Shown one piece after another: positions 11,282 through 28,066 of a DNA stretch of 64,000 nucleotides. The position numbers and the translations under genes were made by a program. The stretch comes from an uncultured virus (IMG/VR IMGVR_UViG_3300042908_000623) (taxonomy: Duplodnaviria; Heunggongvirae; Uroviricota; Caudoviricetes): IMG/VR virus record IMGVR_UViG_3300042908_000623; one strand, written 5' to 3'. Position 1 is the first letter of the stretch. Every line of letters begins with the position of its first letter. The notes beneath the pieces are model-generated. The model had not been told where the DNA came from. It did no database searches and was given only the letters and a program-made list of their open reading frames with translations.

Positions 11282-11362
11282 GGAGAGAACATTCGAACGA
11301 ACGCGCCCCTTTGTCAAGAATAAAAGTAAACGAATTTTAATAATTTATTTGCAAAATAACTG

Positions 11363-11392: not shown

Positions 11393-11453
11393 GCATTCAT
11401 CGACGGGGGCAATGAGGCTCTCAGAGATGACAACGTAGCTAACAGGAGAAACG

Positions 11454-11723: not shown

Positions 11724-11782
11724 CAGCATTTACACAATCAGCGGATTGTCCTGCGACAGGCCGCATAGCAACAGGAGAAACA

Positions 11783-11980: not shown

Positions 11981-12034
11981 CCATTCACCACAACCAGCGG
12001 CTCGTGATCGGGCCGCGCAACCACAGGAGAAAAC

Positions 12035-12490: not shown

Positions 12491-12492
12491 TC

Positions 12493-13158
12493 ATGACGAG
12501 AGACACCCTCATTACCGCACTGAGCCACTTGCACTATGAGTCCGGCTTTACGCCGGACTCTGTTCCGCAGGATATGCCGGAGAACGGCATACTGCGGAAA
12601 AAGAAAGGCGGCATCGTCGTACAGGGTGACGCCCTGTACTGGCATTACGATGGCCGCTTGCGTACAGCCGTCATCCGCCAGGATGGCTGGCTGGAGTACC
12701 GCGAGTATTTCGCGACTGCTCATTGGCACGCCTGCAGCCACTGGCGCGCGCTCTACCGTGGATGGGAGCGCGGGGACGACTCGGACTTCGAGCGCACGCG
12801 CTTTGCGTCCATACAGGACGAGGCGCGCACGTCAGGACTCCGTCACTATCTCCAGACTGACGGCAATCTGCGAGTCGAGCTGGATACATCGTGGCCGCAT
12901 CTGGCCATTGTTTGGTCGTCGCGGGAGCAAGACCTCCCGCAGTGGATCTCAGCCGGACGCGAGCCGGGAGGTACTGAGCGTCGGATATTCGGCGCAGACG
13001 TGCAGCGATCTGACCACAAAGGCCGGTACTTTGAGCTGGTCGTCCGCATCCCTGAGCCAGACGATAGCGCGTCGTCAGGACTCGTCGATCGGATGCACGG
13101 TCGCGCAATCGTGCGCCCGTGGCGTGGCTGGGAGATGCCATTGGAGCTAACGAAATGA
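12493..13158 (+). CDS. Hypothetical early protein
   Basis: AGGAGG RBS; SHWRALY..GDD..FE motif shared with 60894-61544. Confidence 0.7.
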   Translation: MTRDTLITALSHLHYESGFTPDSVPQDMPENGILRKKKGGIVVQGDALYWHYDGRLRTAVIRQDGWLEYREYFATAHWHACSHWRALYRGWERGDDSDFERTRFASIQDEARTSGLRHYLQTDGNLRVELDTSWPHLAIVWSSREQDLPQWISAGREPGGTERRIFGADVQRSDHKGRYFELVVRIPEPDDSASSGLVDRMHGRAIVRPWRGWEMPLELTK

Positions 13159-13364
13159 ACGACGCCATCTGCCAGAGGTGCGGTGACGATCACCTCGGCG
13201 ACTATCCGGTATGCGCGCTATGCGCCCCGGTAACGCACTTTACGCACCGGCAATCACTCGGTCGCCGGTGCATTCATTGCGACCTATTGCGAGAGCGGGA
13301 GACCAGCCAGCTTCGCAAGCCGCAACCCACGGACACGCCCCGATCAGGGGCGATTGACATTTAG
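13155..13364 (+). CDS. Small Cys-rich (zinc-binding) protein
   Basis: Three CxxC motifs; overlaps the upstream stop. Confidence 0.5.
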   Translation: MNDAICQRCGDDHLGDYPVCALCAPVTHFTHRQSLGRRCIHCDLLRERETSQLRKPQPTDTPRSGAIDI

Positions 13365-13371
13365 GAGCAAC

Positions 13372-13947
13372 GTGAAAGCGAAAATTCAAAACAGACTGCG
13401 CCCGATGTCGCTGTCGTCGAGCGTGTCGGCGACTCCGACACAGCTGAAGAAGCGCAATGACCGCGCGCTAGATGCGCGTCTAGCGGCGAGAGAAGCCGCA
13501 GCCAGCACGGCTCAGCGCGTGGTGCGCGCCGCTGATGGATGGCGCATAGAGCAGGGGGGGCAGTTCCCGCGACGCTCTCCAGAGTGCTGGGAGACGCGCA
13601 CAGAGGCGGTCGCTGCTATCACCGCTGGGTATTTATTCGAGCCTATCGCTATCGTCGAGGTGTGGCCGCGCATCGACGACGTCAATTACGACGTGCGATC
13701 CGTCGGGACGTGTACGCTGTGCCTGGTGCGCGGTTTGACGGACGTGCCAGCTACTCAGCGCGTGTACATTCGCTTCTCGGCGACGACGCGCGGCTCGATC
13801 GACGTGTGCTCACGGACAGCTCACGAGCTGGCCGTTGAGATCGGCAAGCACATCACGCCACAATCAGATGGCGTGCGCAGCTGGAGAGATCTAAGAGATC
13901 TAGTGGAAGACGAAAAATTAGTAAACGACTTGCAAAATAACTATTGA
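13372..13947 (+). CDS. Hypothetical protein
   Basis: AGGAG RBS before GTG. Confidence 0.6.
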   Translation: MKAKIQNRLRPMSLSSSVSATPTQLKKRNDRALDARLAAREAAASTAQRVVRAADGWRIEQGGQFPRRSPECWETRTEAVAAITAGYLFEPIAIVEVWPRIDDVNYDVRSVGTCTLCLVRGLTDVPATQRVYIRFSATTRGSIDVCSRTAHELAVEIGKHITPQSDGVRSWRDLRDLVEDEKLVNDLQNNY

Positions 13948-13972
13948 CAATAACTATTACTCGCGGTATAGT
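13944..13972 (+). promoter_or_regulatory. Second early promoter, duplicate of 11363
   Basis: TTGACA-17-TATAGT; shares upstream TTGCAAAATAACT and downstream CATCGACGGGGGC. Confidence 0.8.
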
Positions 13973-14034
13973 CCAAACATCGACGGGGGCAGTGAGGCTT
14001 CCGAAGACGCAAACGCAGCTAACAGGAGGCGACA

Positions 14035-14307
14035 ATGAGAGTCAAAATGCATCACCAGATTCTAGCTATCAAGAGCAACGGCTGTATGACAACTGACGAG
14101 TGGCTTGCAGCTGGTAGACCCCATTGGAAAATCTACACGGTGGATACTCGCGGACAACGGGGCTATCTCGATGTTCGACCCGTACCTTGCAATCGGATCT
14201 TGCGCACACGTCGCATTATTCCTTACAGTGCGGTCTCTATTGGCCTGATTCGCGGCAGTGTACACGAGACACTGAATATTGTCGCGGTCGATAAGGCAGC
14301 CCGATGA
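14035..14307 (+). CDS. Hypothetical protein
   Basis: CAGGAGG RBS. Confidence 0.6.
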   Translation: MRVKMHHQILAIKSNGCMTTDEWLAAGRPHWKIYTVDTRGQRGYLDVRPVPCNRILRTRRIIPYSAVSIGLIRGSVHETLNIVAVDKAAR

Positions 14308-14465
14308 CCTGCATTGACCCACGATGCGAAAACGGAGTCATCGTCACTGGGCCGTATATGGCCAGCGATGGCTCTCCTGAGTGGCACGGTGTCCCGTGCG
14401 GACTCTGCATGATACCAATCGTCACTGACGCCGATGCTGAGGGTGACGAGACTATCCCTTTCTAA
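14304..14465 (+). CDS. 53-aa zinc-binding peptide with SSB-like acidic tail (..GDETIPF)
   Basis: Manual translation; paralogue 61788-62003 ends DDENIPF. Confidence 0.65.
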   Translation: MTCIDPRCENGVIVTGPYMASDGSPEWHGVPCGLCMIPIVTDADAEGDETIPF

Positions 14466-14502
14466 CGCAGCTATCAGGGGCTACGGCCCCACAAGGAGAA
14501 AC

Positions 14503-15210
14503 ATGACCAGAATCCTCAACCTCACCCAGCACAGCCCCACACCGGAGCAGATCGCCGCCGGAGTTGTTTCGGGCGAAATCAGCGATGCCCAACAGACAGA
14601 GGTTCGCGCACTACTGACTTTTGATACGCTTCCCACGCCCGTTGAGGTGCGCCATCGCGCCGAGCGGCTGGCGGAGATCGCCGCCTCCGCCTTTACAATC
14701 GTCGACTACGGCGGAGACTCTGGTCTCTGCGCTAACGAGTTGTTCAAATACGCCATGATTGGCGGCGCGCCGTACCTGATGGCCCCGCTTGAGGTGGCAC
14801 TCCGTGCGCGTGGCATCACGCCTGTGTACGCTTTTTCTGTGCGCGAGTCCGTCGACCAGGTGCAGCCGGACGGCAGCGTCCGCAAAGTGGCCGTGTTCCG
14901 GCACGCTGGGTTTGTCGGCTGCGAGATCGACGAGCCCGAGACGATCGAGGTGATGCCGGCCAACAAAGAGGCGGAGCTTTACCTTTTCGTTGCTACTGAG
15001 TGCAACGAAGAGTGGAAGAAGTTACACGCGACCACGGCTGAGAGCGTCACCGCGCTTTTCGAGAAGATGAAAGCGTCTGATGATGGATACAATCTCGAGC
15101 TGTCCGCCGACAGAAAGGTCGGCAGCTGGTCGGCTGAGGGATACCTCAGCATCGGCAAAACCGCCGAAATCAAGGCCGTTCAGTATTTTGGCGTAGTCTA
15201 TCAGTTCTAA
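14503..15210 (+). CDS. Csx20-like protein (putative cyclic-oligoadenylate ring nuclease) with C-terminal extension
   Basis: NLTQHSPTPEQ, AMIGG, GITPVYAFSVRESV..DGSVRKVAVFRHAGF resemble the Csx20 pattern as recalled (H.LT.EQ, LIQG, PVYSTT.R..E..DG..K...F.H..F). Confidence 0.55.
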   Translation: MTRILNLTQHSPTPEQIAAGVVSGEISDAQQTEVRALLTFDTLPTPVEVRHRAERLAEIAASAFTIVDYGGDSGLCANELFKYAMIGGAPYLMAPLEVALRARGITPVYAFSVRESVDQVQPDGSVRKVAVFRHAGFVGCEIDEPETIEVMPANKEAELYLFVATECNEEWKKLHATTAESVTALFEKMKASDDGYNLELSADRKVGSWSAEGYLSIGKTAEIKAVQYFGVVYQF

Positions 15211-15216
15211 ATTTTC

Positions 15217-15250
15217 GAGCCACTTCGATTTATTCGGAGTGGCTTTTCTT
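15217..15250 (+). terminator. Intrinsic terminator
   Basis: AGCCACTTCG/CGGAGTGGCT stem plus TTTCTT; conserved at 62502-62536. Confidence 0.7.
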
Positions 15251-15270
15251 GCGTGGAGGAGGCATCAGCA

Positions 15271-15423
15271 ATGACAGACGACGACATCCGCAACGACGAC
15301 TACGATCTCGATCGTGATTATCCCGAGGATGAGCACGACGAACGCGCCCCGGACGACGTTATCCGGCGCGACAATGCAGACGTAATCAACGACTGGCTGC
15401 GACGCAGCCGCAGCACCTGGTAG
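15271..15423 (+). CDS. 50-aa highly acidic protein
   Basis: GGAGG RBS; MTDDDIRNDDYDLDRDYPED...; near-identical to 62548-62715. Confidence 0.7.
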   Translation: MTDDDIRNDDYDLDRDYPEDEHDERAPDDVIRRDNADVINDWLRRSRSTW

Positions 15424-15430
15424 GAGGACT

Positions 15431-16423
15431 ATGAGCACAGCAATCACACGCATCCAGACAGTGGACGATCTTGGCCAGCTAGGCCAGATCTTCGTCAAAT
15501 CTGGGTTTTTCGCCGACACCCGCGACGCCGCTCAGGCTATCGTCAAAGTCATGGCAGGGCAGGAGCTTGGATTCGCGCCGATCGCATCAATGACTGGCGT
15601 ATACATCGTCAAGGGCAAGGTATCGCTCTCGGCAAATCTCATCGCCGCTGCAATCAAACGCAGTGGCCGCTACAACTTTCGCGTCCGCAAGCACGACGCG
15701 ACGGTATGCGAAGTTGAGTTCTTCGAGTGTGACAAGCTCGGCAACAAAGAGTCTATCGGCTTTTCGTCCTTCTCAATTGAGGAAGCGCGAGCGGCCAAAC
15801 TGACGGATAGCGCAACTTGGAAGAGCTTCCCCCGGAATATGCTTTATGCCAGAGCCATCAGCAACGGCGCAAAGTGGCATTGTCCGGATGTGTTCGGCGG
15901 CCCGATATACACGCCGGATGAGCTTGGAGCAACCGTCGATGGCGAGACCGGCGAAATGATCGACGTGACGCCCTCAGCCGTCGCAGTTCCTGCAATACCA
16001 GCACCCGCACCAAAAAAAGCACCACGCGCCATTGCTGAGGCTCCTGCGCCTATTGTGGGCCAGTCCGGATTCACCCAAAAACAGCTGAGGTCAGTAATCG
16101 ACACAGTTGGCGAGGCTCTCGGGGAGACCGCAGTTGACACCGGACTAATCGAGCAGCTTTCGCAGATCCTCGACGGCCTGGCGGGATACGGTGTCGCTGA
16201 CGCGCTGATTCTGCAAGGCATCGCGAATATGACCGGCCAGACTCTCACGGATCTATCGCACGACTCTATCGCGCTCCTTTCGCCGAAGGAGCAGGAGACG
16301 CTCATCGAACGGTACGGCAACCGCCTTGAGCAGCTCGAGGCAGAGCGCGCCGGGCAGCCTGACCGTCATGCATTCGACGAGCCTACCACTCCGGCTGACG
16401 ACATCGCCGGGCCGCAGTTCTAA
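15431..16423 (+). CDS. RecT/Red-beta-like single-strand annealing protein
   Basis: GQELGF.P......Y.VKGK, WKSFPRNML.ARA, PDVFGG..YTPDEL. Confidence 0.75.
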   Translation: MSTAITRIQTVDDLGQLGQIFVKSGFFADTRDAAQAIVKVMAGQELGFAPIASMTGVYIVKGKVSLSANLIAAAIKRSGRYNFRVRKHDATVCEVEFFECDKLGNKESIGFSSFSIEEARAAKLTDSATWKSFPRNMLYARAISNGAKWHCPDVFGGPIYTPDELGATVDGETGEMIDVTPSAVAVPAIPAPAPKKAPRAIAEAPAPIVGQSGFTQKQLRSVIDTVGEALGETAVDTGLIEQLSQILDGLAGYGVADALILQGIANMTGQTLTDLSHDSIALLSPKEQETLIERYGNRLEQLEAERAGQPDRHAFDEPTTPADDIAGPQF

Positions 16424-16735: not shown

Positions 16736-17080
16736 ATGAGTCACTTAGTAGATTTTGTGAAATACGCGCAGTGTCGCGTTATCCTTGAGGCACTGACCCG
16801 CGCTGGCAACCGGCAAGCGCAGGTTGTACAGGACGCTATCGTCACCGACCGAGATGCCGAACGCGCAAAGTATTACGCAATGCTTGACGCCGTAAGTCAG
16901 GCTCAGCTGGCGTGTGATCGCGCACTGCTGGTGATCGCGCAAGCAGTCGCCACGGCTGATCAGTCGGTTAATGACGTAGTAAATATGCTGTACGGTGCTG
17001 GATTTGATTGGGCCGAAGATGCGCCCGTCGTCACAGATATTGTCCGCGAGCTGACCGCCATTGCACAGGAGGCGCGATGA
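16736..17080 (+). CDS. Hypothetical protein
   Basis: Hairpin GGGGAGG-GTAA-CCTCCCC plus RBS upstream. Confidence 0.6.
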   Translation: MSHLVDFVKYAQCRVILEALTRAGNRQAQVVQDAIVTDRDAERAKYYAMLDAVSQAQLACDRALLVIAQAVATADQSVNDVVNMLYGAGFDWAEDAPVVTDIVRELTAIAQEAR

Positions 17081-17658
17081 TATGCAGTGACAAATGGTGG
17101 CACAAGCACGGGCCGGACATCCTCGACGTCTTCCACGCTGGTCAGGTGCGCCAGTACCGCGGCTATCGCGTCATCAGCTATGGCACGTCGTCGGCAGGAT
17201 ATGACCTCTCACTGAGTGTGGCAGGTCTGCAGTTGTTTACGTCTGTCGATAGTGCGGTCATTGATCCGAAGCGTTTCGATGAGCGATGCCTGACGTCGAT
17301 AGAGGTAAAATACGACAATAACTCTGATGCCTACTACACGCTGCCACCGCACTCGTACGCACTCGGCGTGACCCACGAGCGCATCACGATGCCGGATAAT
17401 CACCTCGGGCTGGTGATTGGCAAGTCGACCTACGCGCGGTGTGGGCTCATCCTCAACACGACACCATTGGAACCGGGCTGGACTGGCCAGCTTGTGCTTG
17501 AGCTGAGCAACGCCACGCCGCTACCGATGCGTGTTTACGCCCACGAGGGAATCGGCCAGCTGGTTATGATCGCACTCGACGAGCGTCCTGCTGTCACGTA
17601 CGGTGACCGCAGCGGCAAATACCAGGATCAGCGCGGCATTGTGACCGCGAGAGTATAG
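17077..17658 (+). CDS. dcd: dCTP deaminase
   Basis: SYGTSSAGYDL, GKSTYARCG, TPLEPGW.GQLVLE.SN, YAHEGIGQ, GKYQDQ. Confidence 0.92.
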   Translation: MICSDKWWHKHGPDILDVFHAGQVRQYRGYRVISYGTSSAGYDLSLSVAGLQLFTSVDSAVIDPKRFDERCLTSIEVKYDNNSDAYYTLPPHSYALGVTHERITMPDNHLGLVIGKSTYARCGLILNTTPLEPGWTGQLVLELSNATPLPMRVYAHEGIGQLVMIALDERPAVTYGDRSGKYQDQRGIVTARV

Positions 17659-17837: not shown

Positions 17838-18115
17838 TGACTGAGAAGTGGGAAGTGGTAAAACAACCATTTGAGCGCGAAATAGTGCGCACCGTTGAAT
17901 ATGGCGTCTTTGCGAAAAACGGAAAAGAGCTTGTGGCTAACGTCACGAGCCGCAAAGATGCGCGATTGATATCCGCATCGCCGCTGATGCTGGAGGCGTT
18001 GCAGCGATTGCTCTACCTCATTGAGCGCGATGACAGCGTGACTCACAATATCGAGTATGCGGATTCGACCATACTCGACCAAGCACGAGCTGCAATCGCA
18101 GCGGCGGAGGGGTAG
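17834..18115 (+). CDS. Hypothetical phage protein (ARLI.A.P..LEAL type)
   Basis: Common phage early-gene pattern DARLISASPLMLEAL...ARAAIAAAEG. Confidence 0.65.
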   Translation: MMTEKWEVVKQPFEREIVRTVEYGVFAKNGKELVANVTSRKDARLISASPLMLEALQRLLYLIERDDSVTHNIEYADSTILDQARAAIAAAEG

Positions 18116-18118
18116 TAA

Positions 18119-18307
18119 GTGACAGTAGCAGAACTCATCGAATGGCTGAAGACTCAAGACCAGGATGCCGTGGTGCATGTCGTATTTCACTCGCCGCGCT
18201 ACAGATACTACCTTCAAGGCGGCACTGCTACGATCGTGGCTTTTGACCCAGATAAACATGCAGATTACAGTGACAAAGAATTACTGCTCGGAGTGTATGA
18301 AAAGTAG
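18119..18307 (+). CDS. Hypothetical phage protein
   Basis: MTVAELIEWLK..DQDA.V pattern. Confidence 0.6.
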   Translation: MTVAELIEWLKTQDQDAVVHVVFHSPRYRYYLQGGTATIVAFDPDKHADYSDKELLLGVYEK

Positions 18308-18316
18308 TTCGCGCGC

Positions 18317-18372
18317 AATTAAACACGCTCGCAATTTCGTGTCTAATTCCGTGTTTCATTTCGTGTTTAATT
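18317..18372. repeat. Three tandem 12-bp repeats plus one inverted copy
   Basis: ATTTCGTGTCTA / ATTCCGTGTTTC / ATTTCGTGTTTA (18334-18369); AATTAAACACG at 18317 is inverted. Confidence 0.7.
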
Positions 18373-18420
18373 AACGGAGCCTCGAAAAGCGTTTCAGGCT
18401 CCACAAAATCAGGAGGAACA

Positions 18421-18726
18421 ATGAGAAATATAATTAAAAGTATTAAAAGTATGGAAGCTCAAGGACAAAGACAAATGATGGAGGGCACATTACTTCCACG
18501 TAACTTAAGTGACTGCACTGAAGCTAGCCTGACTGAACTAGGGTTTGAGCTGGGTGATGTCGTCGATGATCATTTCCGTAAGGGTCGCTTGCCATCTGGA
18601 TGGACAATGAAGCCAGACGGAGGGGCGTTTCACACTGAAATTATTGACGAGAGAGGCAATCATCGAGGGTACCTCTCGTATAAAGCCTCGCCTCGTGATC
18701 GATGGGCGCAATTGTCTGTAAAATAA
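18421..18726 (+). CDS. Hypothetical protein
   Basis: AGGAGG RBS, upstream hairpin, lower GC. Confidence 0.65.
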   Translation: MRNIIKSIKSMEAQGQRQMMEGTLLPRNLSDCTEASLTELGFELGDVVDDHFRKGRLPSGWTMKPDGGAFHTEIIDERGNHRGYLSYKASPRDRWAQLSVK

Positions 18727-18846
18727 CTCAGGAGGAGCGATGATGAGCAAACAGGAACACCCATTCCCAATTTTCCTTTTTTGCACAGGACTCGCGGTAC
18801 TCGTTTATTTTCTGGCTATCTGGTAGATAGCTACAACAGGAGGACT

Positions 18847-19311
18847 ATGAAAGCAATACTCGCAACGATACTCGGGATAGTCGCACTGGCTATTCCCGCC
18901 CACGCTCAGTCATTCGACGCACCTGGAGGGCCGGTGTGCGTCTATCGGCCGGAAACGATCACCACGCAGCACCCACTGCGTCGATCCGTAATCGTCCAGG
19001 GCAGAGCATACGGATACCTCCAGCCTGTCGATGCCGTGCAGTACCTGCGCGTTGTTGGCGGATCGCGTGATGCGTTTTTCCAGCACGAGTCCGCATCGGC
19101 TGCGGTGCAATACTCGATTGCCGGATCATCGATCATCGGTGACATCCGGCTTGCAGCGTGGCACGATGGCGCGCCGAATATGACGTTAGGTGGACTCGTG
19201 CGCGCGTACTCAATCAGCGGCAACCCGCAGCAGCGCGCGTATTTCGGACTGTGGCTCGTGCGCGTCGTCGAGTCGGCTTTCAACGATGGCTGCAATGGAG
19301 GTGCAAGATGA
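18847..19311 (+). CDS. Secreted protein with signal peptide
   Basis: MKAILATILGIVALAIPAHA signal with AxA cleavage site. Confidence 0.65.
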   Translation: MKAILATILGIVALAIPAHAQSFDAPGGPVCVYRPETITTQHPLRRSVIVQGRAYGYLQPVDAVQYLRVVGGSRDAFFQHESASAAVQYSIAGSSIIGDIRLAAWHDGAPNMTLGGLVRAYSISGNPQQRAYFGLWLVRVVESAFNDGCNGGAR

Positions 19312-19490
19312 TTATCGTCGGTGGATTTATCGTTGCGCTTCTGTGGATATGGTGGACGAGTGACGACGGCTGCGATGACGGCGGAGGATTCTGAGGATAA
19401 GCGCGTGGCCAGTTTGGCCATACTAACCCATAGGATGGCTCGCAATAATCGATTGCAAGCCATCCTGACGACAAGAAAACAGGAAGCACA

Positions 19491-19820
19491 ATGACTATCA
19501 GGATCACAATGCAAACAACCACAACTTACACGCTCGATCCGGTGCGCGATCTCACCGAATCCGGCACTGCGTACGAACTTCGGTTTCACTTCGATGCGTG
19601 GGCAACGTCGCCAGACACATCTACAAGCTCTTCAGTGACCGTCACCATTCCATCATTCTACGTGGGCAAGTACGACCTCGACGAATATCGAGACGTGGCG
19701 CAAATCATCAGGCTGTTAGAAAGTAACGGAGTATCCCGTGACGCGACGGATAACGATACGCGCCTGATGCTCACCAAGGCAATCGACCGCTTGCGCAAAA
19801 AGGACGAGGACTTCGAATGA
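19491..19820 (+). CDS. Hypothetical protein
   Basis: RBS; coupled to the next ORF. Confidence 0.55.
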   Translation: MTIRITMQTTTTYTLDPVRDLTESGTAYELRFHFDAWATSPDTSTSSSVTVTIPSFYVGKYDLDEYRDVAQIIRLLESNGVSRDATDNDTRLMLTKAIDRLRKKDEDFE

Positions 19821-20032
19821 CCCAAGCCGACATAGACGAGATCGACCGCCGAATAAGTAACGCATTTTTGGCTTTGCGCGGCCATGCGTTCGAGCGTGAC
19901 GTGACATGGATAAACCATCCAGTCACGCAATCAAAAGAACCGCATATTGACGAGATCTTGACGCCCATAGTCGAGGCAATGAAAGCAGAGCTGGTCAAGA
20001 TCGCAGAATCAAATGGAGGTAAACGTGAGTAA
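19817..20032 (+). CDS. Hypothetical protein
   Basis: ATGA overlap. Confidence 0.55.
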   Translation: MTQADIDEIDRRISNAFLALRGHAFERDVTWINHPVTQSKEPHIDEILTPIVEAMKAELVKIAESNGGKRE

Positions 20033-20639
20033 CAAGCTGATATTCTTTGAAGGGCCGGATGGCGTCGGCAAGACTCGGGTACTGACAGATATAACAGTCA
20101 GAGAAGATGGCGCACTATTTGACCGTGATACTCAGGAGCCGTGGAATCACGCGATATTGGATCTGGCCGTAGACGCCGATCCGACAACTCAGGCACTGCT
20201 CTTTATCGCTGATCGATCGCTGCATATGCGCCATGTTGCCGAATGGCTCGAAGACGACCACATCATCTGCGACCGTGGGCCGCTGTCAACGCTGGTCTAC
20301 CAGGGAAGCGCGAAGGGTATGTCTGGCAACGTCGATCTTGACTGGCTGATCGAGCTGAACGACGTGGCGATGAACAGCGTATCAGTGTCACACACGATCA
20401 TATTCTACGCGCCTTTTGACACGATCTGTCGGCGCATCGAGGGTCGCGAGAAGCGATCAATGACGCAGCGCGAACGCGAAGAACTGTTTCGCGCGTGGGG
20501 AGCGTATGAGGCTATCCGACGCGATCCGGCAAAGTACACGCATTCGTGGACAGGTGAGCTGATGTTCATCGATGCCGATCGACCATACGACGTTGTATAT
20601 GCGGATGTCGAGAAGACAGTTATGGATATCTTGACATGA
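20025..20639 (+). CDS. tmk: Thymidylate kinase
   Basis: FEGPDGVGKT P-loop, LLFIADR, ICDR..S.LVYQG. Confidence 0.9.
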   Translation: MSNKLIFFEGPDGVGKTRVLTDITVREDGALFDRDTQEPWNHAILDLAVDADPTTQALLFIADRSLHMRHVAEWLEDDHIICDRGPLSTLVYQGSAKGMSGNVDLDWLIELNDVAMNSVSVSHTIIFYAPFDTICRRIEGREKRSMTQREREELFRAWGAYEAIRRDPAKYTHSWTGELMFIDADRPYDVVYADVEKTVMDILT

Positions 20640-21175
20640 TCAACGCTCACCCAAAACAGATCACTGCTAAGATCGATATAGTAGATCTTGGTTTTACTAC
20701 TCACTGCTGGTCTTGGACTGGAGCCTTGAATGAGTACGGATACGGTCGAACAGGTGGGACAATCGACACGTACGCCCACCGACTGTCTTACAAGATATTC
20801 ATCGGTGCAATCGGCAAGGATCTTCACATTGACCATTTATGCCGAAACCGTCGATGCGTCAACCCGCTACATTTAGAGGCTGTGACAAGATCCGAGAACT
20901 TAAAGCGACGTGTTAATCATTACGCAAATCGAACGCACTGCAAGAACGGTCACGATTTAACGGAAGAAAACACGCACGTTACCAAGACGGGCAAAAGTTG
21001 CAAGAAGTGTCGATACCAGGGGCTGGTGAGATGGCGCAACAATCATTCTGATATAGCTCGACAGCGAAACACCGAAGCCAAGCGCAAATGGCGCAAATCG
21101 CGAAGAGAACTTAAAGAATGTCGAGCAACTAATCAGACGGATGCAGTCGTCACCGAAAATCTAAAAGGGAACTGA
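20636..21175 (+). CDS. HNH homing-type endonuclease
   Basis: CWSWTG, AHRLSY, IDHLCRNRRCVNPLHLE, HCKNGH. Confidence 0.9.
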   Translation: MINAHPKQITAKIDIVDLGFTTHCWSWTGALNEYGYGRTGGTIDTYAHRLSYKIFIGAIGKDLHIDHLCRNRRCVNPLHLEAVTRSENLKRRVNHYANRTHCKNGHDLTEENTHVTKTGKSCKKCRYQGLVRWRNNHSDIARQRNTEAKRKWRKSRRELKECRATNQTDAVVTENLKGN

Positions 21176-21178
21176 GCT

Positions 21179-22066
21179 ATGTCGAATATCCAAAGATACG
21201 AACCAGAACAGCCACGGCAGCTCATCCGCAATGCGGGTGATATGTCCGTAGCTGATGCCGCGAATGACGATCAGGTCATCGCGCTATGGTTGGCGACGAA
21301 GCGCAACACAAAGACCGTGTACCAGTATCAGCTATCAGTGCGTCGCCTCTTCGAGGTGACTGGTCGTCAGATCTGCGAGATGACGCTAAATGACCTGCTG
21401 ATATTCACCGACTCGCTTTCGTCGATGCGTCCGGCAACTCAGGCGCAGCGGATAGCATCGGTCAAGTCGCTGTACAGCTTCTGCCACAAGATCGGATACG
21501 TTCGCGTCAACGTGGCGGCATTGCTCAGAGCACCTCAGAGCAAGGACACTCTCAACGAACGCATCCTGACCGAAGAGGAGGTGCTGAGGCTTACGATGGC
21601 GGCTTGGAGTCCTCGCGACAAGGCACTCATCCGTATGCTGTATCGTACGGCCGGCCGAATATCGGAGGTCGTGACCATCACCTGGGCGGATCTGGTCGTC
21701 AAGCCTGAGCAAGGTCAGGTCACGCTATTCGGCAAAGGCGGCAAGACGCGAGTGGTGCAGATACCATTAACGCTTGTGTCAGCGTTGCAGGATATTCGTG
21801 ACGGGGCAGAGAATAGCGAGCGTATCTTTCCGATCACTCGTCAGAGGGCGTGGAGTATCGTCAAGGCCACGGCGAAGCGCGCAGGCATCACGGACAAGCT
21901 CTCGCCGCACTGGTTCAGGCATAGCCACGCCACACACTCACTCGACCACGGCGCGCCGCTGAAGCTGGTCAGCTCAACGCTGGGTCATTCGTCGATCTCA
22001 ATCACCGATCGATATTTGCACAATAGGCCGGACGAGTCGTCCGGTGATTTTCTTAAAGTTGGTTAA
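21179..22066 (+). CDS. Tyrosine recombinase (XerC/D-like)
   Basis: RISE, GKGGK, HWFRH, LGH, TDRY catalytic set. Confidence 0.92.
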   Translation: MSNIQRYEPEQPRQLIRNAGDMSVADAANDDQVIALWLATKRNTKTVYQYQLSVRRLFEVTGRQICEMTLNDLLIFTDSLSSMRPATQAQRIASVKSLYSFCHKIGYVRVNVAALLRAPQSKDTLNERILTEEEVLRLTMAAWSPRDKALIRMLYRTAGRISEVVTITWADLVVKPEQGQVTLFGKGGKTRVVQIPLTLVSALQDIRDGAENSERIFPITRQRAWSIVKATAKRAGITDKLSPHWFRHSHATHSLDHGAPLKLVSSTLGHSSISITDRYLHNRPDESSGDFLKVG

Positions 22067-22088
22067 ACCACAGAAGGAACTTTCGAAT

Positions 22089-23024
22089 ATGAATAACGGA
22101 TTAGACAAGAACATTGACCTCTCAACTTCGACCACTGCTCATACTCAGCCCAAGATGGAATGGCTTCGAGTGACGCCTCAGATGGCTGAGGAATGGTTAA
22201 AGCTGAACACAGAGAACCGCCCAGTCAAGTCAAGTCAGGTAGCATACTTGCAACGCGAAATCACATCAGGTCGATTTATTGGCACTGGGTCGCCGATTAT
22301 TTTTGTAGGTAAAACATTGGTTGATGGTCAGCATCGCCTGATGGCTATTGTACGGGCTGACAAGGCCGTTGATATGATGGTAGTACGTCACCCTGTCAAC
22401 GCGCAGACGAAGCAGATTTTTCACGTCATCGACACTGGAGTTAAACGCAGCTTTGCGGACTTGCTGTCTTTAAAAGGAGAGAAAAATGTGACTCAGTTAA
22501 GCGCTATATTAAAGGTGCTTGAGATCTATCATACTGCCAAAGATCTGTCAGATGGTCGATTTATACCTTATACTTTTCTTAGTCGACAATTAGTTATGCA
22601 TCGTCTTACCGCCCAAGAACAGCGTGGATCATCGAAACTATCTCGCAAGCAAGAATTGAACTGGCTTGATAAATACTCAGACGCTCGTGAATCCGCGGCG
22701 TTTTGTAAGCGTTACCCTTCAGCCAAATTCATAACGCCTGCATCACTGGGAGTTCTGCATTACGTCCTGACAGAAATTGACGCGTCATTTGCTCAAGAGT
22801 TCCTCGTGACTTTAATGGAAGGTGGCGCACCTCGTGAAAGCCCGATTCATTTAGTTCGAGAGACGTTGATTAGACAGCATTCAAGCTCAGCGTCAGATCA
22901 AAAGAGTATCGCCTTTGCATATGTAGCTTTGCTTGTCTTTTCTGCCTGGAATGCGACAAGGGCCGGCAATACGTTAAAGAGGAAAGATATCGAAGCAGGG
23001 AAGCCGATTCCCTTGCCGATGTAA
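22089..23024 (+). CDS. ParB/Srx-like N-terminal domain protein
   Basis: VTP.MA.EWL..N..NR, LVDGQHRLMAI, IDTG..RS; lower GC. Confidence 0.7.
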   Translation: MNNGLDKNIDLSTSTTAHTQPKMEWLRVTPQMAEEWLKLNTENRPVKSSQVAYLQREITSGRFIGTGSPIIFVGKTLVDGQHRLMAIVRADKAVDMMVVRHPVNAQTKQIFHVIDTGVKRSFADLLSLKGEKNVTQLSAILKVLEIYHTAKDLSDGRFIPYTFLSRQLVMHRLTAQEQRGSSKLSRKQELNWLDKYSDARESAAFCKRYPSAKFITPASLGVLHYVLTEIDASFAQEFLVTLMEGGAPRESPIHLVRETLIRQHSSSASDQKSIAFAYVALLVFSAWNATRAGNTLKRKDIEAGKPIPLPM

Positions 23025-23029
23025 TTGGA

Positions 23030-23064
23030 TGGCCAGCTTGATACGATTCAGGCTGGCCGTTTCT
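23030..23064 (+). terminator. Probable intrinsic terminator
   Basis: GGCCAGCTTG/CAGGCTGGCC stem plus GTTTCT. Confidence 0.5.
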
Positions 23065-23095
23065 ACAGACTCATCGAATCAGGAGACGTGACGCA

Positions 23096-23293
23096 ATGGC
23101 AACGATCGAAGAGGAAGCGGCAAAGCGAATGGCACTAGCCAAGAAGCTCAACCCGTGGATGGCGATTGACTATCTTGAAAGCGTGGTTGAGATGCAAGCG
23201 GCAGATATCGCAGCGTTGAAGTCGCGGATCGCTGAACTTGAGCGAGAGCTTACGAACTGGCCGATTGAGTATGAAAACGAAAGGACGAGGTAG
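23096..23293 (+). CDS. Small coiled-coil protein
   Basis: Paralogue of 50099-50257 (RIAELERELT.WPIEYE). Confidence 0.7.
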   Translation: MATIEEEAAKRMALAKKLNPWMAIDYLESVVEMQAADIAALKSRIAELERELTNWPIEYENERTR

Positions 23294-23294
23294 T

Positions 23295-23594
23295 ATGGCA
23301 AGGAAAACAAAAAAAACGAAGAGACCGTGCACGGCTGGCCCATACGTTGTTCGACCGAGAGGTTGGGGCACTGCTATCGAAGGGCCGAAGGGAGAGCCGA
23401 TCGGATGGTGCGGCGACAACTACAGCTCGATGGGTGGAAGCGTGCCACACTTGGAGAACGCGACACTCTTTGCGTCGTCGTACGAGCTTCACTGTTTGCT
23501 GACTGAGGCATTAGCAAGCAATGCTATCAAAGATGAGATCTGGATAAGCAAAGCCCGTGAGGTGCTGAGCAGATCCAATGTGTCATCGAAATAA
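23295..23594 (+). CDS. Hypothetical phage protein
   Basis: GAGG RBS; T.GPY...ENATL.A pattern. Confidence 0.55.
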   Translation: MARKTKKTKRPCTAGPYVVRPRGWGTAIEGPKGEPIGWCGDNYSSMGGSVPHLENATLFASSYELHCLLTEALASNAIKDEIWISKAREVLSRSNVSSK

Positions 23595-23605
23595 GGACAA
23601 TCAAA

Positions 23606-23998
23606 ATGGGACGACCGCGAAAGATGCCGACAAAGGCAAACATTCTTGACTACTGGCAAAACTGTCAAAAAATGTGGGATGCTCCTAAATCAATCAACAT
23701 ATGCATGGCGTGCGGTTTTGATGGCTTGATCAGTAGGTGTCACGTTCAATCAGTTGCGGATGGGGGAAGTGATGATCTGAGCAACATCGTCCTGCTATGT
23801 CGCAGTTGTCATTACAGACAAGAGTCCGTATGCGTCACCGAATACGGGCGAGCTTCATTTATGAGTTCGTTGATGGACGGTGCGCCATACATGGTAGCGC
23901 GAGCAACAGAGTTGATGACAAGCGCGAAGATGATGGGATACGTGGATGAGTCAGTCCAGCCCACGCCAAGCGGGATAGCTTTACTAAGCCATCTCTAA
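23606..23998 (+). CDS. HNH endonuclease
   Basis: CMACG...RCHV....GG.DD.SN..LLC..CH. Confidence 0.8.
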   Translation: MGRPRKMPTKANILDYWQNCQKMWDAPKSINICMACGFDGLISRCHVQSVADGGSDDLSNIVLLCRSCHYRQESVCVTEYGRASFMSSLMDGAPYMVARATELMTSAKMMGYVDESVQPTPSGIALLSHL

Positions 23999-24012
23999 AC
24001 TAAAATAACTTA

Positions 24013-24040
24013 GTATTACTAAACCACTATTTAGTAAATA
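24013..24040. promoter_or_regulatory. AT-rich inverted repeat (operator or recombination site)
   Basis: TTACTAAA-CCACTA-TTTAGTAA within an AT-rich gap upstream of cas6e. Confidence 0.45.
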
Positions 24041-24104
24041 GGAAAATAGCAGTAATGCAGTAAAATCAGGCCTTCCAGCCTCTCACACAGAAAGGATCAC
24101 CACA

Positions 24105-24779
24105 TTGTTCGTCTCGGTTTTATACCCAAACCACACACGGCGCATCGTACAGATGGAGCTTGAGGACTGTCACGCCATCCATCGGCGACTGATGCGAGCT
24201 TTCCCGGAGATGCCGAACATCGAAGAGTCACGCCGCCACTTCGGAGTCCTCTATCGACTCGAGACCGACGACACTCTTCATCGCCCCCGGATCATCGTCC
24301 AGTCGCGCATTCTTCCTGACTGGTCTGCCAATGGTATACCGTTCGACTACTTCGACAACATCGAAGAGTCGTCGTGCGCCAGCATCGCTTCCAGGTACGA
24401 CGCTATCACCACTGACGAGGTAATGCCCTTCCTCCTTCGCGGCAATCCCACCAAGCGACTATCCAGCAAGAACGGCATCAACGGAAAGCGCGTCGCCATC
24501 AAAGACGAGGCCGGCTGGCACGACTGGCTCAAGCGCAAGTCTGAACAGTCAGGCTTTGAGGTTCTGAACCTCAGCAAGTGCGGACAGCCTGAGCACAAGA
24601 TCGGTCGCCAGCTCGTGACCGCATCGAGCCTTAGCGGATATGGCGACCGCCGAATGACCTTCACCAGCATCGACTTTGCCGGAACACTTCGCGTCACCAA
24701 CGCCGACGACTTCAGGCTTGCCCTATGCGATGGTATAGGCACGGGCAAAGCGTTTGGCTACGGGCTGCTGCTGGTCTAA
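24105..24779 (+). CDS. cas6e: Type I-E CRISPR RNA endoribonuclease Cas6e (CasE/Cse3), orphan
   Basis: HRRLMRAF, VLYRLE, IVQS...PDW, FLLRGNPTK, GKR, WL.RK...GF, F.GTL.V, C-terminal G-loop GIGTGKAFGYGLL; TTG start with AAAGGA RBS. Confidence 0.92.
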   Translation: MFVSVLYPNHTRRIVQMELEDCHAIHRRLMRAFPEMPNIEESRRHFGVLYRLETDDTLHRPRIIVQSRILPDWSANGIPFDYFDNIEESSCASIASRYDAITTDEVMPFLLRGNPTKRLSSKNGINGKRVAIKDEAGWHDWLKRKSEQSGFEVLNLSKCGQPEHKIGRQLVTASSLSGYGDRRMTFTSIDFAGTLRVTNADDFRLALCDGIGTGKAFGYGLLLV

Positions 24780-24808
24780 AACGGCCACTACACGAAAGGC
24801 TATTCACC

Positions 24809-25039
24809 ATGGACACAACTACCGCAGCTTTGATTTTCATTTACGCAATGGGCGTAATCACGGGGCTAGTGATCAATCACGGCAAGGGCAACGGAGTGAC
24901 GATCACTCAGACCTACAACGAGTCCGAACCGGCGGTCAACATATCGACAATGCCAGGTATCGAGATATCCGACACCGACTGGCCGGACTCACTCGACACC
25001 GACAACCTCAACAACACAAAAGGAAACGACAACAAATGA
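24809..25039 (+). CDS. Small single-TM protein
   Basis: N-terminal hydrophobic helix; ATGA overlap with dnaN. Confidence 0.55.
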   Translation: MDTTTAALIFIYAMGVITGLVINHGKGNGVTITQTYNESEPAVNISTMPGIEISDTDWPDSLDTDNLNNTKGNDNK

Positions 25040-26133
25040 ACTTCAGAATAGGCAAATCATCACTCCTTAAAGAACTCGCATTCCTGCAAGGCGCGATCGC
25101 GCACAAGTCCACAATGCCGATACTACAGAATGTGCACATATCCTCAACGAGTGGGGGATTGAATCTTCGAGCTACAGACCTTGACGTGCACATCGCAACC
25201 TTCGCGGATGCGACGATCGATAGCGAAGGATCAGCGTGCATTCCCGCAAAGCGTTTTCACGACATCGTAAAGGCACTGCCAGACGCTGAGATCACGATTA
25301 CCACGAACGACACCGAAGCCGTGATCAAGTGCCAGCGCAGCCGCTTCAGGCTCTCAACGTCCCACCCTGACGGATATCCCAACAGTCGCACTGCTCCCTC
25401 TTCCCTGCTGCCGATATCCGCATCGATTCTCAGCACAATGATTGACCGCGTACAGTTCGCGGCATCGAAGGAAGAGTCGCGTTACGCGCTCAATGGCGTC
25501 AAGTTTGAGCTAGCCGAAGGCAAGGCGCGAATGGTCGCCACAGACAGTCACCGGATGGCATACATCGAGCGTGACGTGTACTACGAAGGCGCACCTATTG
25601 ACGTGCTGATTCCCGCCAAGACACTCGACCTTGTGTCAAAGCTGGCGTCGTCATCGGACACTATATCGATCGGATACGAAAACACGACGGTGTTCTTTGA
25701 GGTCGGCAAGCGCGTCATTGCCAGCCGTGTACTTGCTGGTCAGTTCCCGAACTATCGACTTGTGATGGCGAATCATCCTGAGCGGATCGCAGTCAACGCT
25801 CAAGAGTTTGCGTCCGCCTTACGTCGAGTTGCGTTGGTTGCAGACGCTCAGTCATCGTCGGTCAAACTAACGATGAATCGCGACCTCGTGAGTATATCGG
25901 CTGCGTCTCAGGACGTGGGAGACGCTGGCGAGGATGTGCCGTCAAACGTCCCGGAAGCGTTGATAGGTCAGTCGATAGGGCTGAAGTCTGGGTACGTGGC
26001 CGACTTCTTCACCGCTTGCAATGCGGTAAATATGACCATCGACTACAAGGACAGTATGTCACAGATCGTGATGAGACCCACAGATGACGGTGACTACGAT
26101 TACCAGTATATCGTGATGCCGATGAGGGTCTGA
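25036..26133 (+). CDS. dnaN: DNA polymerase III sliding clamp (beta subunit)
   Basis: ATDLD, SRYALNGV, VATDSHRMA, GQFPNY, YIVMPMRV. Confidence 0.95.
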   Translation: MNFRIGKSSLLKELAFLQGAIAHKSTMPILQNVHISSTSGGLNLRATDLDVHIATFADATIDSEGSACIPAKRFHDIVKALPDAEITITTNDTEAVIKCQRSRFRLSTSHPDGYPNSRTAPSSLLPISASILSTMIDRVQFAASKEESRYALNGVKFELAEGKARMVATDSHRMAYIERDVYYEGAPIDVLIPAKTLDLVSKLASSSDTISIGYENTTVFFEVGKRVIASRVLAGQFPNYRLVMANHPERIAVNAQEFASALRRVALVADAQSSSVKLTMNRDLVSISAASQDVGDAGEDVPSNVPEALIGQSIGLKSGYVADFFTACNAVNMTIDYKDSMSQIVMRPTDDGDYDYQYIVMPMRV

Positions 26134-26159
26134 GCTATCAGCGATCGACCAGCAAAGCA

Positions 26160-26196
26160 AAAAGGCCGCGTCAATAATGGCGCGGCCTTTTCGTTT
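26160..26196. terminator. Bidirectional terminator at the A/B junction
   Basis: AAAAGGCCGCG...CGCGGCCTTTT between convergent genes. Confidence 0.8.
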
Positions 26197-26308
26197 GATG
26201 CCTGAAAATAGAAGCGGCCCAAGTGACTCTCCGCAAAAAGTTTCACTTGGGCCTGAACTCAAACCACTTTCTCTTACCCGGCAAGAGTACCAAGAACCAA
26301 TATCTCCG

Positions 26309-26641
26309 TCAAGCGGTCGTCGTCTGAATTCGCACCTTGTAGTCAATCGAATTGTCGAAGTTGATCTGATACTCCAACGCTGAAATGAAGTATCCAGTAT
26401 GCGTGACGTTCTGATATGGCTCGAGCCAGTCAAAGGCGGTCGCCGGAAAGTTCTGATTGTAGAAGGTCTGGAATGCCTGAAACTCGTCAAGCTGGCGATT
26501 CTTGAACTCCAAGTCGTACTCAAAGTATCGTCCCGCCTTCGTGCGTCCGAATCGAGTACGATCATCGGAGTAGTCCACAACGGCATTCTGAAGTTGTCGT
26601 CCTGATATCACGTAGCTGGGCTGATATGGCAATGTCGGCAT
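26309..26641 (-). CDS. Distal-tail-like (lambda gpM-like) protein
   Basis: Size and pattern (YDLEF..R...F..FY....AFDW..P); last gene of the tail operon. Confidence 0.55.
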   Translation of the reverse strand: MPTLPYQPSYVISGRQLQNAVVDYSDDRTRFGRTKAGRYFEYDLEFKNRQLDEFQAFQTFYNQNFPATAFDWLEPYQNVTHTGYFISALEYQINFDNSIDYKVRIQTTTA

Positions 26642-26653
26642 AATCAAGTCTCC

Positions 26654-28066
26654 TTATGGCACAGGTACTGAGTGCGCGGTGTCTGAGTATGGAGTAGTTA
26701 CTAGGATCTTTGCCCGAATGCGCTTGAGCTGCGGCCCTTCCTCAAGTTCCTCAGTCTCTGTCACCATTGCACGATAGATCGGACTTGACCTTTCCCAAAA
26801 GCGAGTTGACCCAAACACGTGAGAGCCGAACAGCGAGCTTTCTACTGCATTCGACGGCAGTAGTAACTCGTGCGCGATCGTAATCAAGTCGCCCGGAAGC
26901 AAGGCGTAAGCATCGCCAAACGCTATCAGCTCGATGCCAGCGTTACACACGCCGTCAAGCTGCGTGCGCCAATAGCAAATGCGCTCTGCCTGCGATCGCT
27001 TCATCGGCGGTAGCTGTATCTCTACGCGATTCTGGCCGCTCGTGTACTCCTCAAGATCAGCATCGAAATACTCGACCGACACCTCTTCAAGGTACTCGGT
27101 ATCCACATCACGAAACGTCGCCTTGTACCCAGTCGGAAGGCTTCGCTGATCCGCCACGTACAGACTCACGCTTCGGCAATTCGACTCGGTGAAGGCGTGA
27201 GTTTCAAGCACGACATTCGACGAACTCAGTACCGGCAAGAACTCGATCGACTGGCCGTTGTCCTGCCAATACGTACAGCTTGACTGACATACAATCGTCA
27301 GCGCATTCAGTATCGACATCGACTGAGTTAGCACAAGGTTCGACTCAAACCGCTTGATGGTCGATCCACCCCACGTAATAAGCACGTCGCAGTAGTTCTT
27401 CCACGTCGTCCAGCTTGCCCAGTCAACGCGAGACAGAAGCCCTGCACGATTAAGCAGATCAGCCGCAATACGCGCCGGATTCGTCGAGTAGGATCCAGCG
27501 TCAACGAGATTGCCAACGCTGTCATAATCTGCAACCTTCAGGCATTCGCACACAGCGCGAAACTTATCTGGCCGCTCCTCTACTGACTGATCCGTTGATA
27601 GCAGTACCTCAGCATATGCCGTGCGCGAGTACGTCGGTGACGACGGAAAGAACATCGGCAATCCTTGCACAGCGTCTCCCGTACCTGTGGACAACGTGCC
27701 AGGATGAAACTTGTATCCCGGAGTAGTCGAGCTTGCAGACGCTGAAATCGACTCGCCCGCATACCAGGCGCGTGATATCGCGTTCCACGGGCCATTACCA
27801 AGCGCAACAATAAACTTGCACGAAGGCGGAGGGCCGGATGTGTGCTCATACTCAACAAGGTTGCCCGCTACCACGTGCTGGCCATAGGCAAGAGCAAGCG
27901 TGGCATTCTCGTCGATCTGCAGTTCGGTCAGGGTCTTGTCTGGTGATGGTGGTACAGGTGACGGCGGCCCACCACTGCCGGAGCCTCCACCGCCAGGCGG
28001 AAGCGATGGATCGTATGGTTGATTCGGATCAGACGGATCGTAGTACAGATTGGTGATATCAAACAT
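26654..28066 (-). CDS. Tail tip / baseplate hub-like protein (second copy)
   Basis: LAYG..VVAGN, STNPA.I..DLL, LLPGD.I.I patterns of gpJ-like hubs. Confidence 0.65.
   Translation of the reverse strand: MFDITNLYYDPSDPNQPYDPSLPPGGGGSGSGGPPSPVPPSPDKTLTELQIDENATLALAYGQHVVAGNLVEYEHTSGPPPSCKFIVALGNGPWNAISRAWYAGESISASASSTTPGYKFHPGTLSTGTGDAVQGLPMFFPSSPTYSRTAYAEVLLSTDQSVEERPDKFRAVCECLKVADYDSVGNLVDAGSYSTNPARIAADLLNRAGLLSRVDWASWTTWKNYCDVLITWGGSTIKRFESNLVLTQSMSILNALTIVCQSSCTYWQDNGQSIEFLPVLSSSNVVLETHAFTESNCRSVSLYVADQRSLPTGYKATFRDVDTEYLEEVSVEYFDADLEEYTSGQNRVEIQLPPMKRSQAERICYWRTQLDGVCNAGIELIAFGDAYALLPGDLITIAHELLLPSNAVESSLFGSHVFGSTRFWERSSPIYRAMVTETEELEEGPQLKRIRAKILVTTPYSDTAHSVPVP

Follow-up and report, generated by a model that had tools for sequence, protein, structure and literature searches.

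A lone, long-diverged Cas6e kept in the early arm of an uncultured lake phage: a possible anti-CRISPR

Orphan cas genes of viruses are an already described class. In the accessible portion of their preprint, Katz et al. (bioRxiv 10.1101/2023.06.24.545427) count 358 of them in IMG/VR and describe the Cas5-like anti-CRISPR (Acr) AcrIB3, which assembles into Cascade and makes the complex defective; this portion of the text names no Cas6 example. A 2026 review, as far as its accessible text goes, lists AcrIB3 (Cas5-like), AcrIB4 (Cas8b-like) and AcrVIA2 (Cas3-like) as Cas-mimic Acrs. Two further reports, cited from the parts accessible as well, concern Cas6 proteins. The type III-associated Cas6-2 of T. 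thermophilus lowers type I-B activity via inactive complexes (PMC12102369), and phage-derived RNA anti-CRISPRs (Racrs) trap Cas6f and Cas7f, with I-E versions that work too (Camara-Wilpert et al. 2023, PMC10651486). Here we describe a gene for Cas6e, standing without any other CRISPR component, at positions 24105..24779 of a 64,000 nucleotide (nt) stretch of DNA from an uncultured virus of the Caudoviricetes (IMG/VR record IMGVR_UViG_3300042908_000623). This whole stretch is called the window in the following. It is possibly the first orphan viral cas gene of the Cas6e type to be examined.

The gene and its putative ribosome-binding site are located as follows.
24105..24779, plus strand: cas6e open reading frame (ORF), TTG start, 224 amino acids (aa), uninterrupted; catalytic His26, G-rich loop G210-G220, end 2 aa past the loop.
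24090..24096, plus strand: Shine-Dalgarno-like GAAAGGA, 8 nt upstream of the TTG, read from the sequence; the same in the related contig G001.

The ORF matches Pfam family PF08798 (CRISPR_assoc) with 143 bits (cutoff 25, E 2e-41). The alignment spans residues 1-224 and profile positions 1-221 of 223 and is therefore full length. The NCBIfam model TIGR01907 (casE_Cse3) gives 81.1 bits at a curated cutoff of 45.2 and the PADLOC Cas6e model an E-value of 2.8e-40; PHROGs holds no family for the protein. A phmmer search of PDB sequences matched Cse3 of T. thermophilus (1wj9, E 3e-14) and placed H26 of the query on H26 of Cse3, in a column that is invariant among 23 of 23 aligned family members. According to the accessible text of PMC5965381, this invariant His (H20 in E. 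coli) is essential for Cas6e catalysis and the G-rich loop is defined as GhGxxxxxGhG. The phage loop, G210-I-G-T-G-K-A-F-G-Y-G220, follows this motif including K215. An AlphaFold2 model based on a 23-row family alignment reached a predicted local distance difference test score of 86.3 and a predicted template modelling score of 0.82. In this predicted structure two ferredoxin-like (RRM) domains superpose on solved Cse3, and the top Foldseek matches in PDB are all Cse3/Cas6e chains (2y8w_A: E 2.9e-18, template modelling score 0.78/0.81). The partner of H20 in E. coli is presumably Tyr23; the corresponding residue of the phage protein is His23. By sequence and predicted fold, the product is a full-length Cas6e with the catalytic His and the RNA-binding G-loop kept. 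The original prediction, made from the letters of the DNA, had described a full-length, uninterrupted Cas6e with an intact G-loop, an N-terminal His region and its own ribosome-binding site, and had proposed a profile search against the family; run here, this search places the protein above the curated cutoffs of Pfam and NCBIfam, and each of the described elements was found as stated.

Other parts of a CRISPR system are missing from the window. None of its 72 ORFs of at least 100 aa matched another Cas family in Pfam and none of 100 greedy ORFs of at least 50 aa another core Cas model in PADLOC. A repeat finder, TRF and a k-mer array finder detected no CRISPR array in the window, and no Rfam family reached its gathering threshold there. 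Profile scans of both the window and G001, its near-complete relative, gave no cse1-cse2-cas7-cas5 operon and no cas3, cas1 or cas2. Moreover, none of the 29 G001-specific ORFs is a cas gene, G001 contains no array, and Cas7e is found neither anywhere in the G001 record nor in that of G002, a second virus with an orphan Cas6e. The earlier claim that 64 kb contain no cas1/3/5/7/8/11 and no array is thus borne out, and a cas operon or array elsewhere in the same genome, which had been named as evidence against it, was found neither in the window nor in G001. With neither an array nor a cas operon near it on a viral genome, this Cas homologue fits the description of orphan viral cas genes.

A search for solitary repeats was performed with a covariance model, R1, of the repeats of 26 relatives with a 7-bp stem. 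At least 52 of 90 loci of relatives carry CRISPR arrays, the repeats of which are nearly uniform (ATnGTCCCCACGCACGTGGGGGTGAACCG), and the stem reads CCCCAC/GUGGGG in 26/26. As positive controls, R1 recovered the 15 repeats of the provirus locus L009 at 41-48 bits and the untrained, divergent repeats of the viral contig L008 at 15-26 bits. Neither the window, where the best match (9.2 bits, E 1.2) had the hairpin deleted, nor G001 (best E 0.92) yielded a solitary I-E-type repeat, and neither yielded a Racr-like one. Hairpins with an I-E-like CCC/GGG stem occur in the phage at seven scattered sites (11 strand-specific matches), none of them recurrent. Canonical repeats are thus missing from the phage, in arrays as well as in solitary, Racr-like form.

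As a side observation, two paralogous early proteins (14503-15210 and 62046-62495), which begin with MTRILNLTQH and MNRILNLTQH, show weak partial PADLOC matches to the CRISPR-associated accessory family Csx20 (E 4e-7 to 4e-6 over 38 aa). A language-model search puts them close to MJ1673, a family of mostly viral proteins (score 0.82), which is a lead only.

The phage Cas6e is far removed from its cellular counterparts. After close phage copies the nearest proteins show 38-41% identity. A scan of one genome per species for 185,579 species found 325 relatives but no close one (best 40% identity); the best 80 of these, from Chloroflexota, Acidobacteriota, Bacillota and others, are 32-40% identical. 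GenBank phages gave no match by tblastn. In a quick IQ-TREE tree of 88 sequences the stem branch of the pair from the window and G001 measures 1.45 changes/site, as compared to a median end branch of 0.37; the placement of the pair is weak (support 84, fork unresolved).

The divergence is unevenly distributed over the protein. Among 83 cellular homologues 62 columns are conserved at 80% or more, and the phage protein keeps 47 of these, including H26, R43, R51, R112, N114, R129, K145, K215 and the whole G-loop. The remaining 15 are changed, mostly conservatively, the exceptions being L8P, P89S, G104D, R110L, A113G and S223L. R110 belongs to a column with 88% Arg in the cellular set, and basic residues are lost on the R-x-R-x-R strand. 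S223L replaces a Ser that follows the G-loop (GLLS) in 100% of the 83 cellular sequences. The tail past the loop comprises 2 aa in the phage vs 4-14 aa in all 82 cellular sequences in which the motif was found. A Ser after the G-loop and a tail of at least 4 aa are universal in the cellular set used here and are not a formal criterion of the family. The lost tail, Ser and Arg may mark the interface for Cascade assembly. Deep divergence together with a kept catalytic and RNA-binding core implies that the protein has long been maintained as a lone gene.

This maintenance is also seen among close relatives. G001 is the sole close IMG/VR contig (60,420 bases, 94% complete by CheckV) and, since 138 bases are shared between its two ends (98.6% identity), is essentially complete. 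It shares window positions 3-28433 at ~95% nucleotide identity. The Cas6e proteins are 98% identical; the 23 nucleotide differences in cas6e comprise 19 synonymous and 4 non-synonymous ones, corresponding to a ratio of non-synonymous to synonymous polymorphism (pN/pS) of 0.065, as compared to 0.106 for the sliding clamp gene dnaN. Close copies are also present in a 96%-identical protein cluster with 28 member sequences and in metagenomes of the Joint Genome Institute, where two short contigs carry close relatives; a 98% copy lies on a contig of 1.2 kb. The surrounding genes are as follows.
21179..22066, plus strand: tyrosine integrase, in the same rightward arm as cas6e.
22044..23024, plus strand: 326-aa gene, phrog_5931, no assigned function; presence/absence polymorphism.
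23606..23998, plus strand: HNH endonuclease gene (PF01844), upstream of cas6e; variable insert.
23999..24104, plus strand: AT-rich intergenic region 5' of cas6e, kept in G001 with few substitutions.
24809..25039, plus strand: 76-aa ORF between cas6e and dnaN, no family match; in-frame 9-nt deletion in one variant.
25036..26133, plus strand: dnaN (sliding clamp), last gene of the rightward arm, three DNA_pol3_beta domains; 25036 is the likely true start.

Both the HNH gene and the 326-aa gene are missing from G001. We further compared contigs of the sequencing runs X2-X5 (four studies; lake water and freshwater sediment) over positions 21000-27000. Cas6e is covered in all four runs with no indel listed within the gene, and seven of the ten substitutions listed there fall on third codon positions; 360 further differences over the 6-kb stretch lie beyond this listing. 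The HNH gene is skipped in X4 and X5 contigs (joint 23584->23979) and the 326-aa gene in X5 (22062->23067), with weaker signs in X2 and X3; the deletion joints of both genes are clean. Hence cas6e is stably kept while its neighbours turn over. The HNH gene had been considered as a functional partner by analogy to Cas5-HNH Cascades and was rejected, as it is missing from G001 and the X4 and X5 contigs. Decay in relatives, which had been put forward as a possible objection, was not seen: pN/pS is 0.065 and no indel is listed in the four runs. Taken together, the factual core of the original prediction stands, namely an intact orphan Cas6e in the replication/early arm of a phage that is not decaying.

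The window is phage DNA, with capsid, portal, terminase and tape measure genes present. A minus-strand block at ~3.3-12.4 kb comprises ThyX, DnaB and a replication-O-like gene. The plus-strand arm (~11.4-26.1 kb) begins with RecT, dCTP deaminase, thymidylate kinase, an HNH_3 gene and the tyrosine integrase and ends with the 326-aa gene, the second HNH gene, cas6e, the 76-aa ORF and dnaN. The predicted position between an HNH gene (23606-23998) and dnaN (25036..26133) in the early arm is correct, with the 76-aa ORF additionally lying before dnaN. A second minus-strand block at 26.3-51.9 kb encodes tail fibres, tape measure, HK97-type capsid, protease, portal and terminase. On the same early arm, G001 carries unrelated structural modules: a P22-type coat, a DUF4055 portal and another terminase (G001 21500-52948) stand in place of the HK97-type capsid, Phage_portal and Peptidase_S78 of the window (28434-52000). 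One early arm including cas6e is joined to two structural modules, which is strong modular mosaicism. The integrase and HTH (helix-turn-helix) repressor-like ORFs at 11039-11317 and 59586-59897 suggest a temperate phage. PHROGs gave no family for the ORFs 23096-23290, 23238-23591 and 24809-25036, nor did Pfam or PADLOC for these small neighbours, and the window contains no tRNA.

Directly before cas6e, in 23999..24104, there is no sigma-70 consensus match. Two strong sigma-70-like promoters (11/12 matches) at 11363 and 13944 are predicted to drive the plus-strand arm. A perfect 8-bp inverted repeat, TTACTAAA-N6-TTTAGTAA, is located 5' of cas6e at 24016-24037, and this region might serve as an operator. 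The promoter TTGACA-17/18-TATAGT occurs in three copies (11337-11448, 13918-14028, 59960-60049), each followed by a ~65-nt conserved leader (CGGTATAGTGCATTCATCGACGGGGGCAATGAGG...) which may represent a regulatory RNA or a shared 5' untranslated region.

Some further features of the window were observed in passing. The replication/early module is present twice (3494-16413 vs 53291-63633), at 68-88% identity, in the same order and orientation and ~47-50 kb apart; cas6e belongs to the first of these two units. The window consequently spans more than one phage unit, as tandem related prophages, a two-strain concatemer or a chimeric assembly. Within the replication-O-like gene both modules contain 23-nt tandem repeats (9421-9507, 58680-58742), which are iteron-like, cf. 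the lambda ori. The replication region (5196-5586 / 5568-5785) shows TGTGCCAC repeats spaced by 45 nt, with GTGCCACTAGTGGCAC palindromes near. Two ThyX, dihydrofolate reductase, a dCTP deaminase-like protein and thymidylate kinase (3322-4239, 53179-53916, 56333-57046, 17008-17658, 20013-20639) form a rich nucleotide-metabolism set, possibly a sign of DNA metabolism that is modified or depends heavily on thymidine.

The host of the phage is probably a member of the Acidobacteriota, judged by gene relatives. Among the best 120 relatives of dnaN all 12 that are named by organism belong to this phylum, mostly to Blastocatellia (39-44% identity), and most organism-named cellular matches of DnaB are Acidobacteriota as well (33-36%). 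These relatives are a lead to a Blastocatellia host, not proof. Cultured phages reach at best 24% identity for the capsid and 32.5% for dnaN, so that no host can be named that way. Metagenome-assembled genomes labelled Blastocatellia carry Cas6e loci, several of them with arrays of 29-nt repeats. As for habitat, positions 18000-26200 were recovered nearly whole in three lake-water metagenome runs, and no RNA run was among those listed.

A family-alignment search of IMG/VR yielded five contigs: L007, L008, L009, L010 and G001, the neighbourhoods of which were inspected as the original prediction had advised. L007 (record G002, 77% complete) carries an orphan Cas6e directly after a PF10040 Cas6 gene (L007 9153-10663), and this pair adjoins an N6/N4 DNA methylase and a PAPS-reductase/DndC-like gene. 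The L007 protein is 55% identical to a Blastocatellia Cas6e, nests in the Blastocatellia/Acidobacteriota clade (SH-like approximate likelihood ratio test 98), keeps 58 of the 62 conserved columns and has an 8-aa tail. It represents an independent, more recent capture. A hairpin at L007 13832-13854 that weakly matches the repeat model (14.7 bits, E 0.016) is antisense to a small ORF. L008 contains a whole Cascade module. L010 holds a variant cas cluster consisting of Cas3, a DevR/Csa2-like Cas7 and a short Cas6e-like gene. L009, an IMG/VR provirus (G003), exhibits cse1-cse2-cas7-cas5::HNH-cas6e and a 15-repeat array between terminase and portal genes (L009 5641-12893); no Cas3 turned up within the 20 kb that were read. 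This locus looks like the Cas5-HNH type I-E variant of PDB 8yb6 and 8zp7, here on a virus. Two unrelated phages with lone crRNA endonucleases, of which L007 combines two kinds of Cas6 beside DNA-modification genes, fit counter-defence better than housekeeping.

Our leading interpretation, which we hold tentatively and would not yet call probable, is that the phage Cas6e is a Cas-homologue anti-CRISPR acting on CRISPR RNA (crRNA) of the host or on Cascade assembly. The gene would go back to an old capture, in which a temperate lake phage, probably of Acidobacteriota, took it from a type I-E system. Its product, which by sequence and model folds as Cas6e with catalytic His and G-loop kept, would bind and probably cut the repeat hairpins of the type I-E pre-crRNA of the host and, like other members of the family, stay on the 3' hairpin. 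Cas6e enzymes cut the repeat hairpin without metal, 8 nt ahead of the spacer, keep the product and contact Cascade mainly via the crRNA. As the phage protein lacks the tail, the invariant Ser and the conserved Arg, the crRNA bound to it might be withheld from Cascade or end up in a defective complex, cf. AcrIB3 and AcrIB4; I-E interference with the phage or prophage would be weakened as a result. Of the two functions that the original prediction had proposed, an anti-CRISPR or a co-opted RNase for phage transcripts, the context leans to counter-defence because the probable host clade has type I-E, a second phage carries an orphan pair, and Cas-homologue Acrs have been published.

Several points weigh against this interpretation. 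The gene is located at the end of a replication/nucleotide-metabolism operon beside dnaN and not in a recognisable anti-defence island, and its immediate neighbours include no known acr, aca or anti-defence family according to PHROGs, Pfam and PADLOC, no Acr-specific library being used. A block of crRNA biogenesis leaves Cascade that is already loaded armed. Given an identity of 33-41%, the stem of 1.45 and the lost basic residues, the RNA specificity may no longer be that of the I-E repeat. The host is deduced from gene relatives and its type I-E system is presumed. Moreover, 1588 spacers from 52 array-bearing loci of relatives gave no match of at least 24 nt to the window or G001, and our literature search found neither a Cas6-type protein Acr nor a phage Cas6e assayed as anti-CRISPR.

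Alternatively, the protein could serve the phage itself as a domesticated site-specific RNase or RNA binder for phage transcripts. This is rather doubtful and would involve a recurrent intercistronic element of the early operon with a GC-rich stem-loop, of the form CAGCGG-[stem-loop]-CCGC-NN-AAC-N-ACAGGAG-(N5-6)-ATG, present in four copies in the window and three in G001.
11738-11785 and 11990-12037 of the window: hairpin element copies.
60518-60566 and 60849-60896 of the window: hairpin element copies in the second, diverged module.
L003 6813-6860, 7083-7130 and 7335-7382, minus strand: hairpin element copies.

All copies are followed immediately by a Shine-Dalgarno sequence of the early rightward operon, and the element may act in RNA processing, antitermination or stabilisation. 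Cas6e would either cut 3' of these hairpins and thereby free messages for separate translation or remain bound as a regulator. Such recurrent, conserved sites speak for this role, as does the catalytic His, dispensable for a pure decoy; the long branch and the altered basic residues fit a changed RNA specificity, and no canonical I-E repeat is needed in the phage. Operon processing has been engineered with Csy4, of which a phage Cas6e acting on operon hairpins would be a natural counterpart. However, the hairpins are tied to Cas6e by co-occurrence alone, and a function in RNase III cleavage, antitermination or stabilisation would suit them just as well. With stems of GCGGCUCG/CGGGCCGC they do not resemble the repeats of the relatives (CCCCAC/GUGGGG in 26/26) and get no score from the repeat model, and consensus folding of the seven copies revealed compensatory change in none of seven predicted pairs. 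The element also occurs in two further IMG/VR contigs, which at 30% and 54% completeness lack cas6e and dnaN and are too fragmentary to inform on co-travel. Cas6e furthermore stays on its product according to the accessible text of PMC5965381, which would be costly for bulk processing of mRNA. We consider it quite improbable that Cas6e has been turned into gene-expression machinery that recognises the early-operon hairpins at 11738-12037 and cuts or clamps the polycistronic mRNA.

A further reading, unlikely in our judgement, is a different hairpin RNA as the target, for a purpose other than blocking host I-E. This could be a host transcript, or a crRNA or repeat-like RNA that belongs to another CRISPR type or a competing mobile element. 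The divergence and altered surface residues of the protein are in line with this. L007 pairs Cas6e with a different Cas6 family, so phages may collect crRNA endonucleases of several types, and AcrVIA2 is, in the part of the source accessible, a Cas homologue that acts on a CRISPR type other than that of its origin. Against it stands that no candidate target was found.

That the gene remains from a phage-borne type I-E system which has lost its other parts, and is now neutral or disappearing, is very improbable and largely refuted: whole I-E modules do exist on phages and proviruses (15 repeats in L009, a full operon in L008) and the quick tree places the phage Cas6e weakly near L009, but its pN/pS is below that of dnaN, it is retained by all variants seen whereas the genes beside it vary in presence, and its deep divergence with kept core implies long upkeep as a lone gene.

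If the anti-CRISPR interpretation is true and the protein blocks type I-E, the crRNA-processing subunit would join the Cas5-, Cas8b- and Cas3-like parts that viruses have turned against CRISPR, and it would be a protein mirror image of the RNA anti-CRISPRs. To our knowledge, there are almost no cultured phages of Acidobacteriota; the gene would be a first counter-defence lead for phages of this phylum. As a small single chain from a family that binds its hairpin tightly, the protein could be used to switch off type I-E tools or as an orthogonal binder of RNA hairpins. The kept core vs the lost tail, Ser and Arg provides a map for probing which features of Cas6e serve Cascade assembly. Depth of divergence, strict conservation and specific losses make the protein a well-defined candidate for experiments.

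In comparison with known systems, the phage protein resembles cellular Cas6e/Cse3/CasE (2Y8W, 1WJ9) by family profile, the two-RRM fold (template modelling score 0.78/0.81), His, G-loop and 47 of 62 conserved columns. It differs from them by being phage-borne with no cse1, cse2, cas7, cas5, cas3, cas1 or cas2, array or cognate repeat found, by an identity of at most 41%, by a stem branch ~4x the median end branch and by the loss of tail, Ser and Arg. With the orphan Cas6e of G002/L007 it shares the lack of other Cascade genes in the record and a probable source in Acidobacteriota. The phages are unrelated, however, and the L007 gene is a recent capture, paired with a second Cas6 and beside a methylase and a PAPS-reductase gene. 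Cas-homologue Acrs and orphan viral cas genes are likewise virus-encoded homologues of Cas subunits with no array or cas operon nearby, and the identity of ~38% to the cellular subunit is the figure that the accessible text gives for AcrIB3 vs Cas5. In contrast to these Acrs, the gene encodes the RNA-processing subunit Cas6e and is not beside a known acr or anti-defence gene. Cas6-2 of T. thermophilus offers a parallel in that, as far as the accessible text describes it, a non-cognate Cas6 competes for Cas proteins and crRNA with fewer active Cascades as a result; it is host-encoded and belongs to another Cas6 family and another subtype. Racrs, which create aberrant subcomplexes according to the accessible part of the report, address the same node, the interaction of Cas6 with the repeat hairpin. 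The roles would be exchanged: a Racr is a phage repeat RNA that traps Cas6/Cas7 of the host, whereas here a phage protein would trap the repeats of the host.

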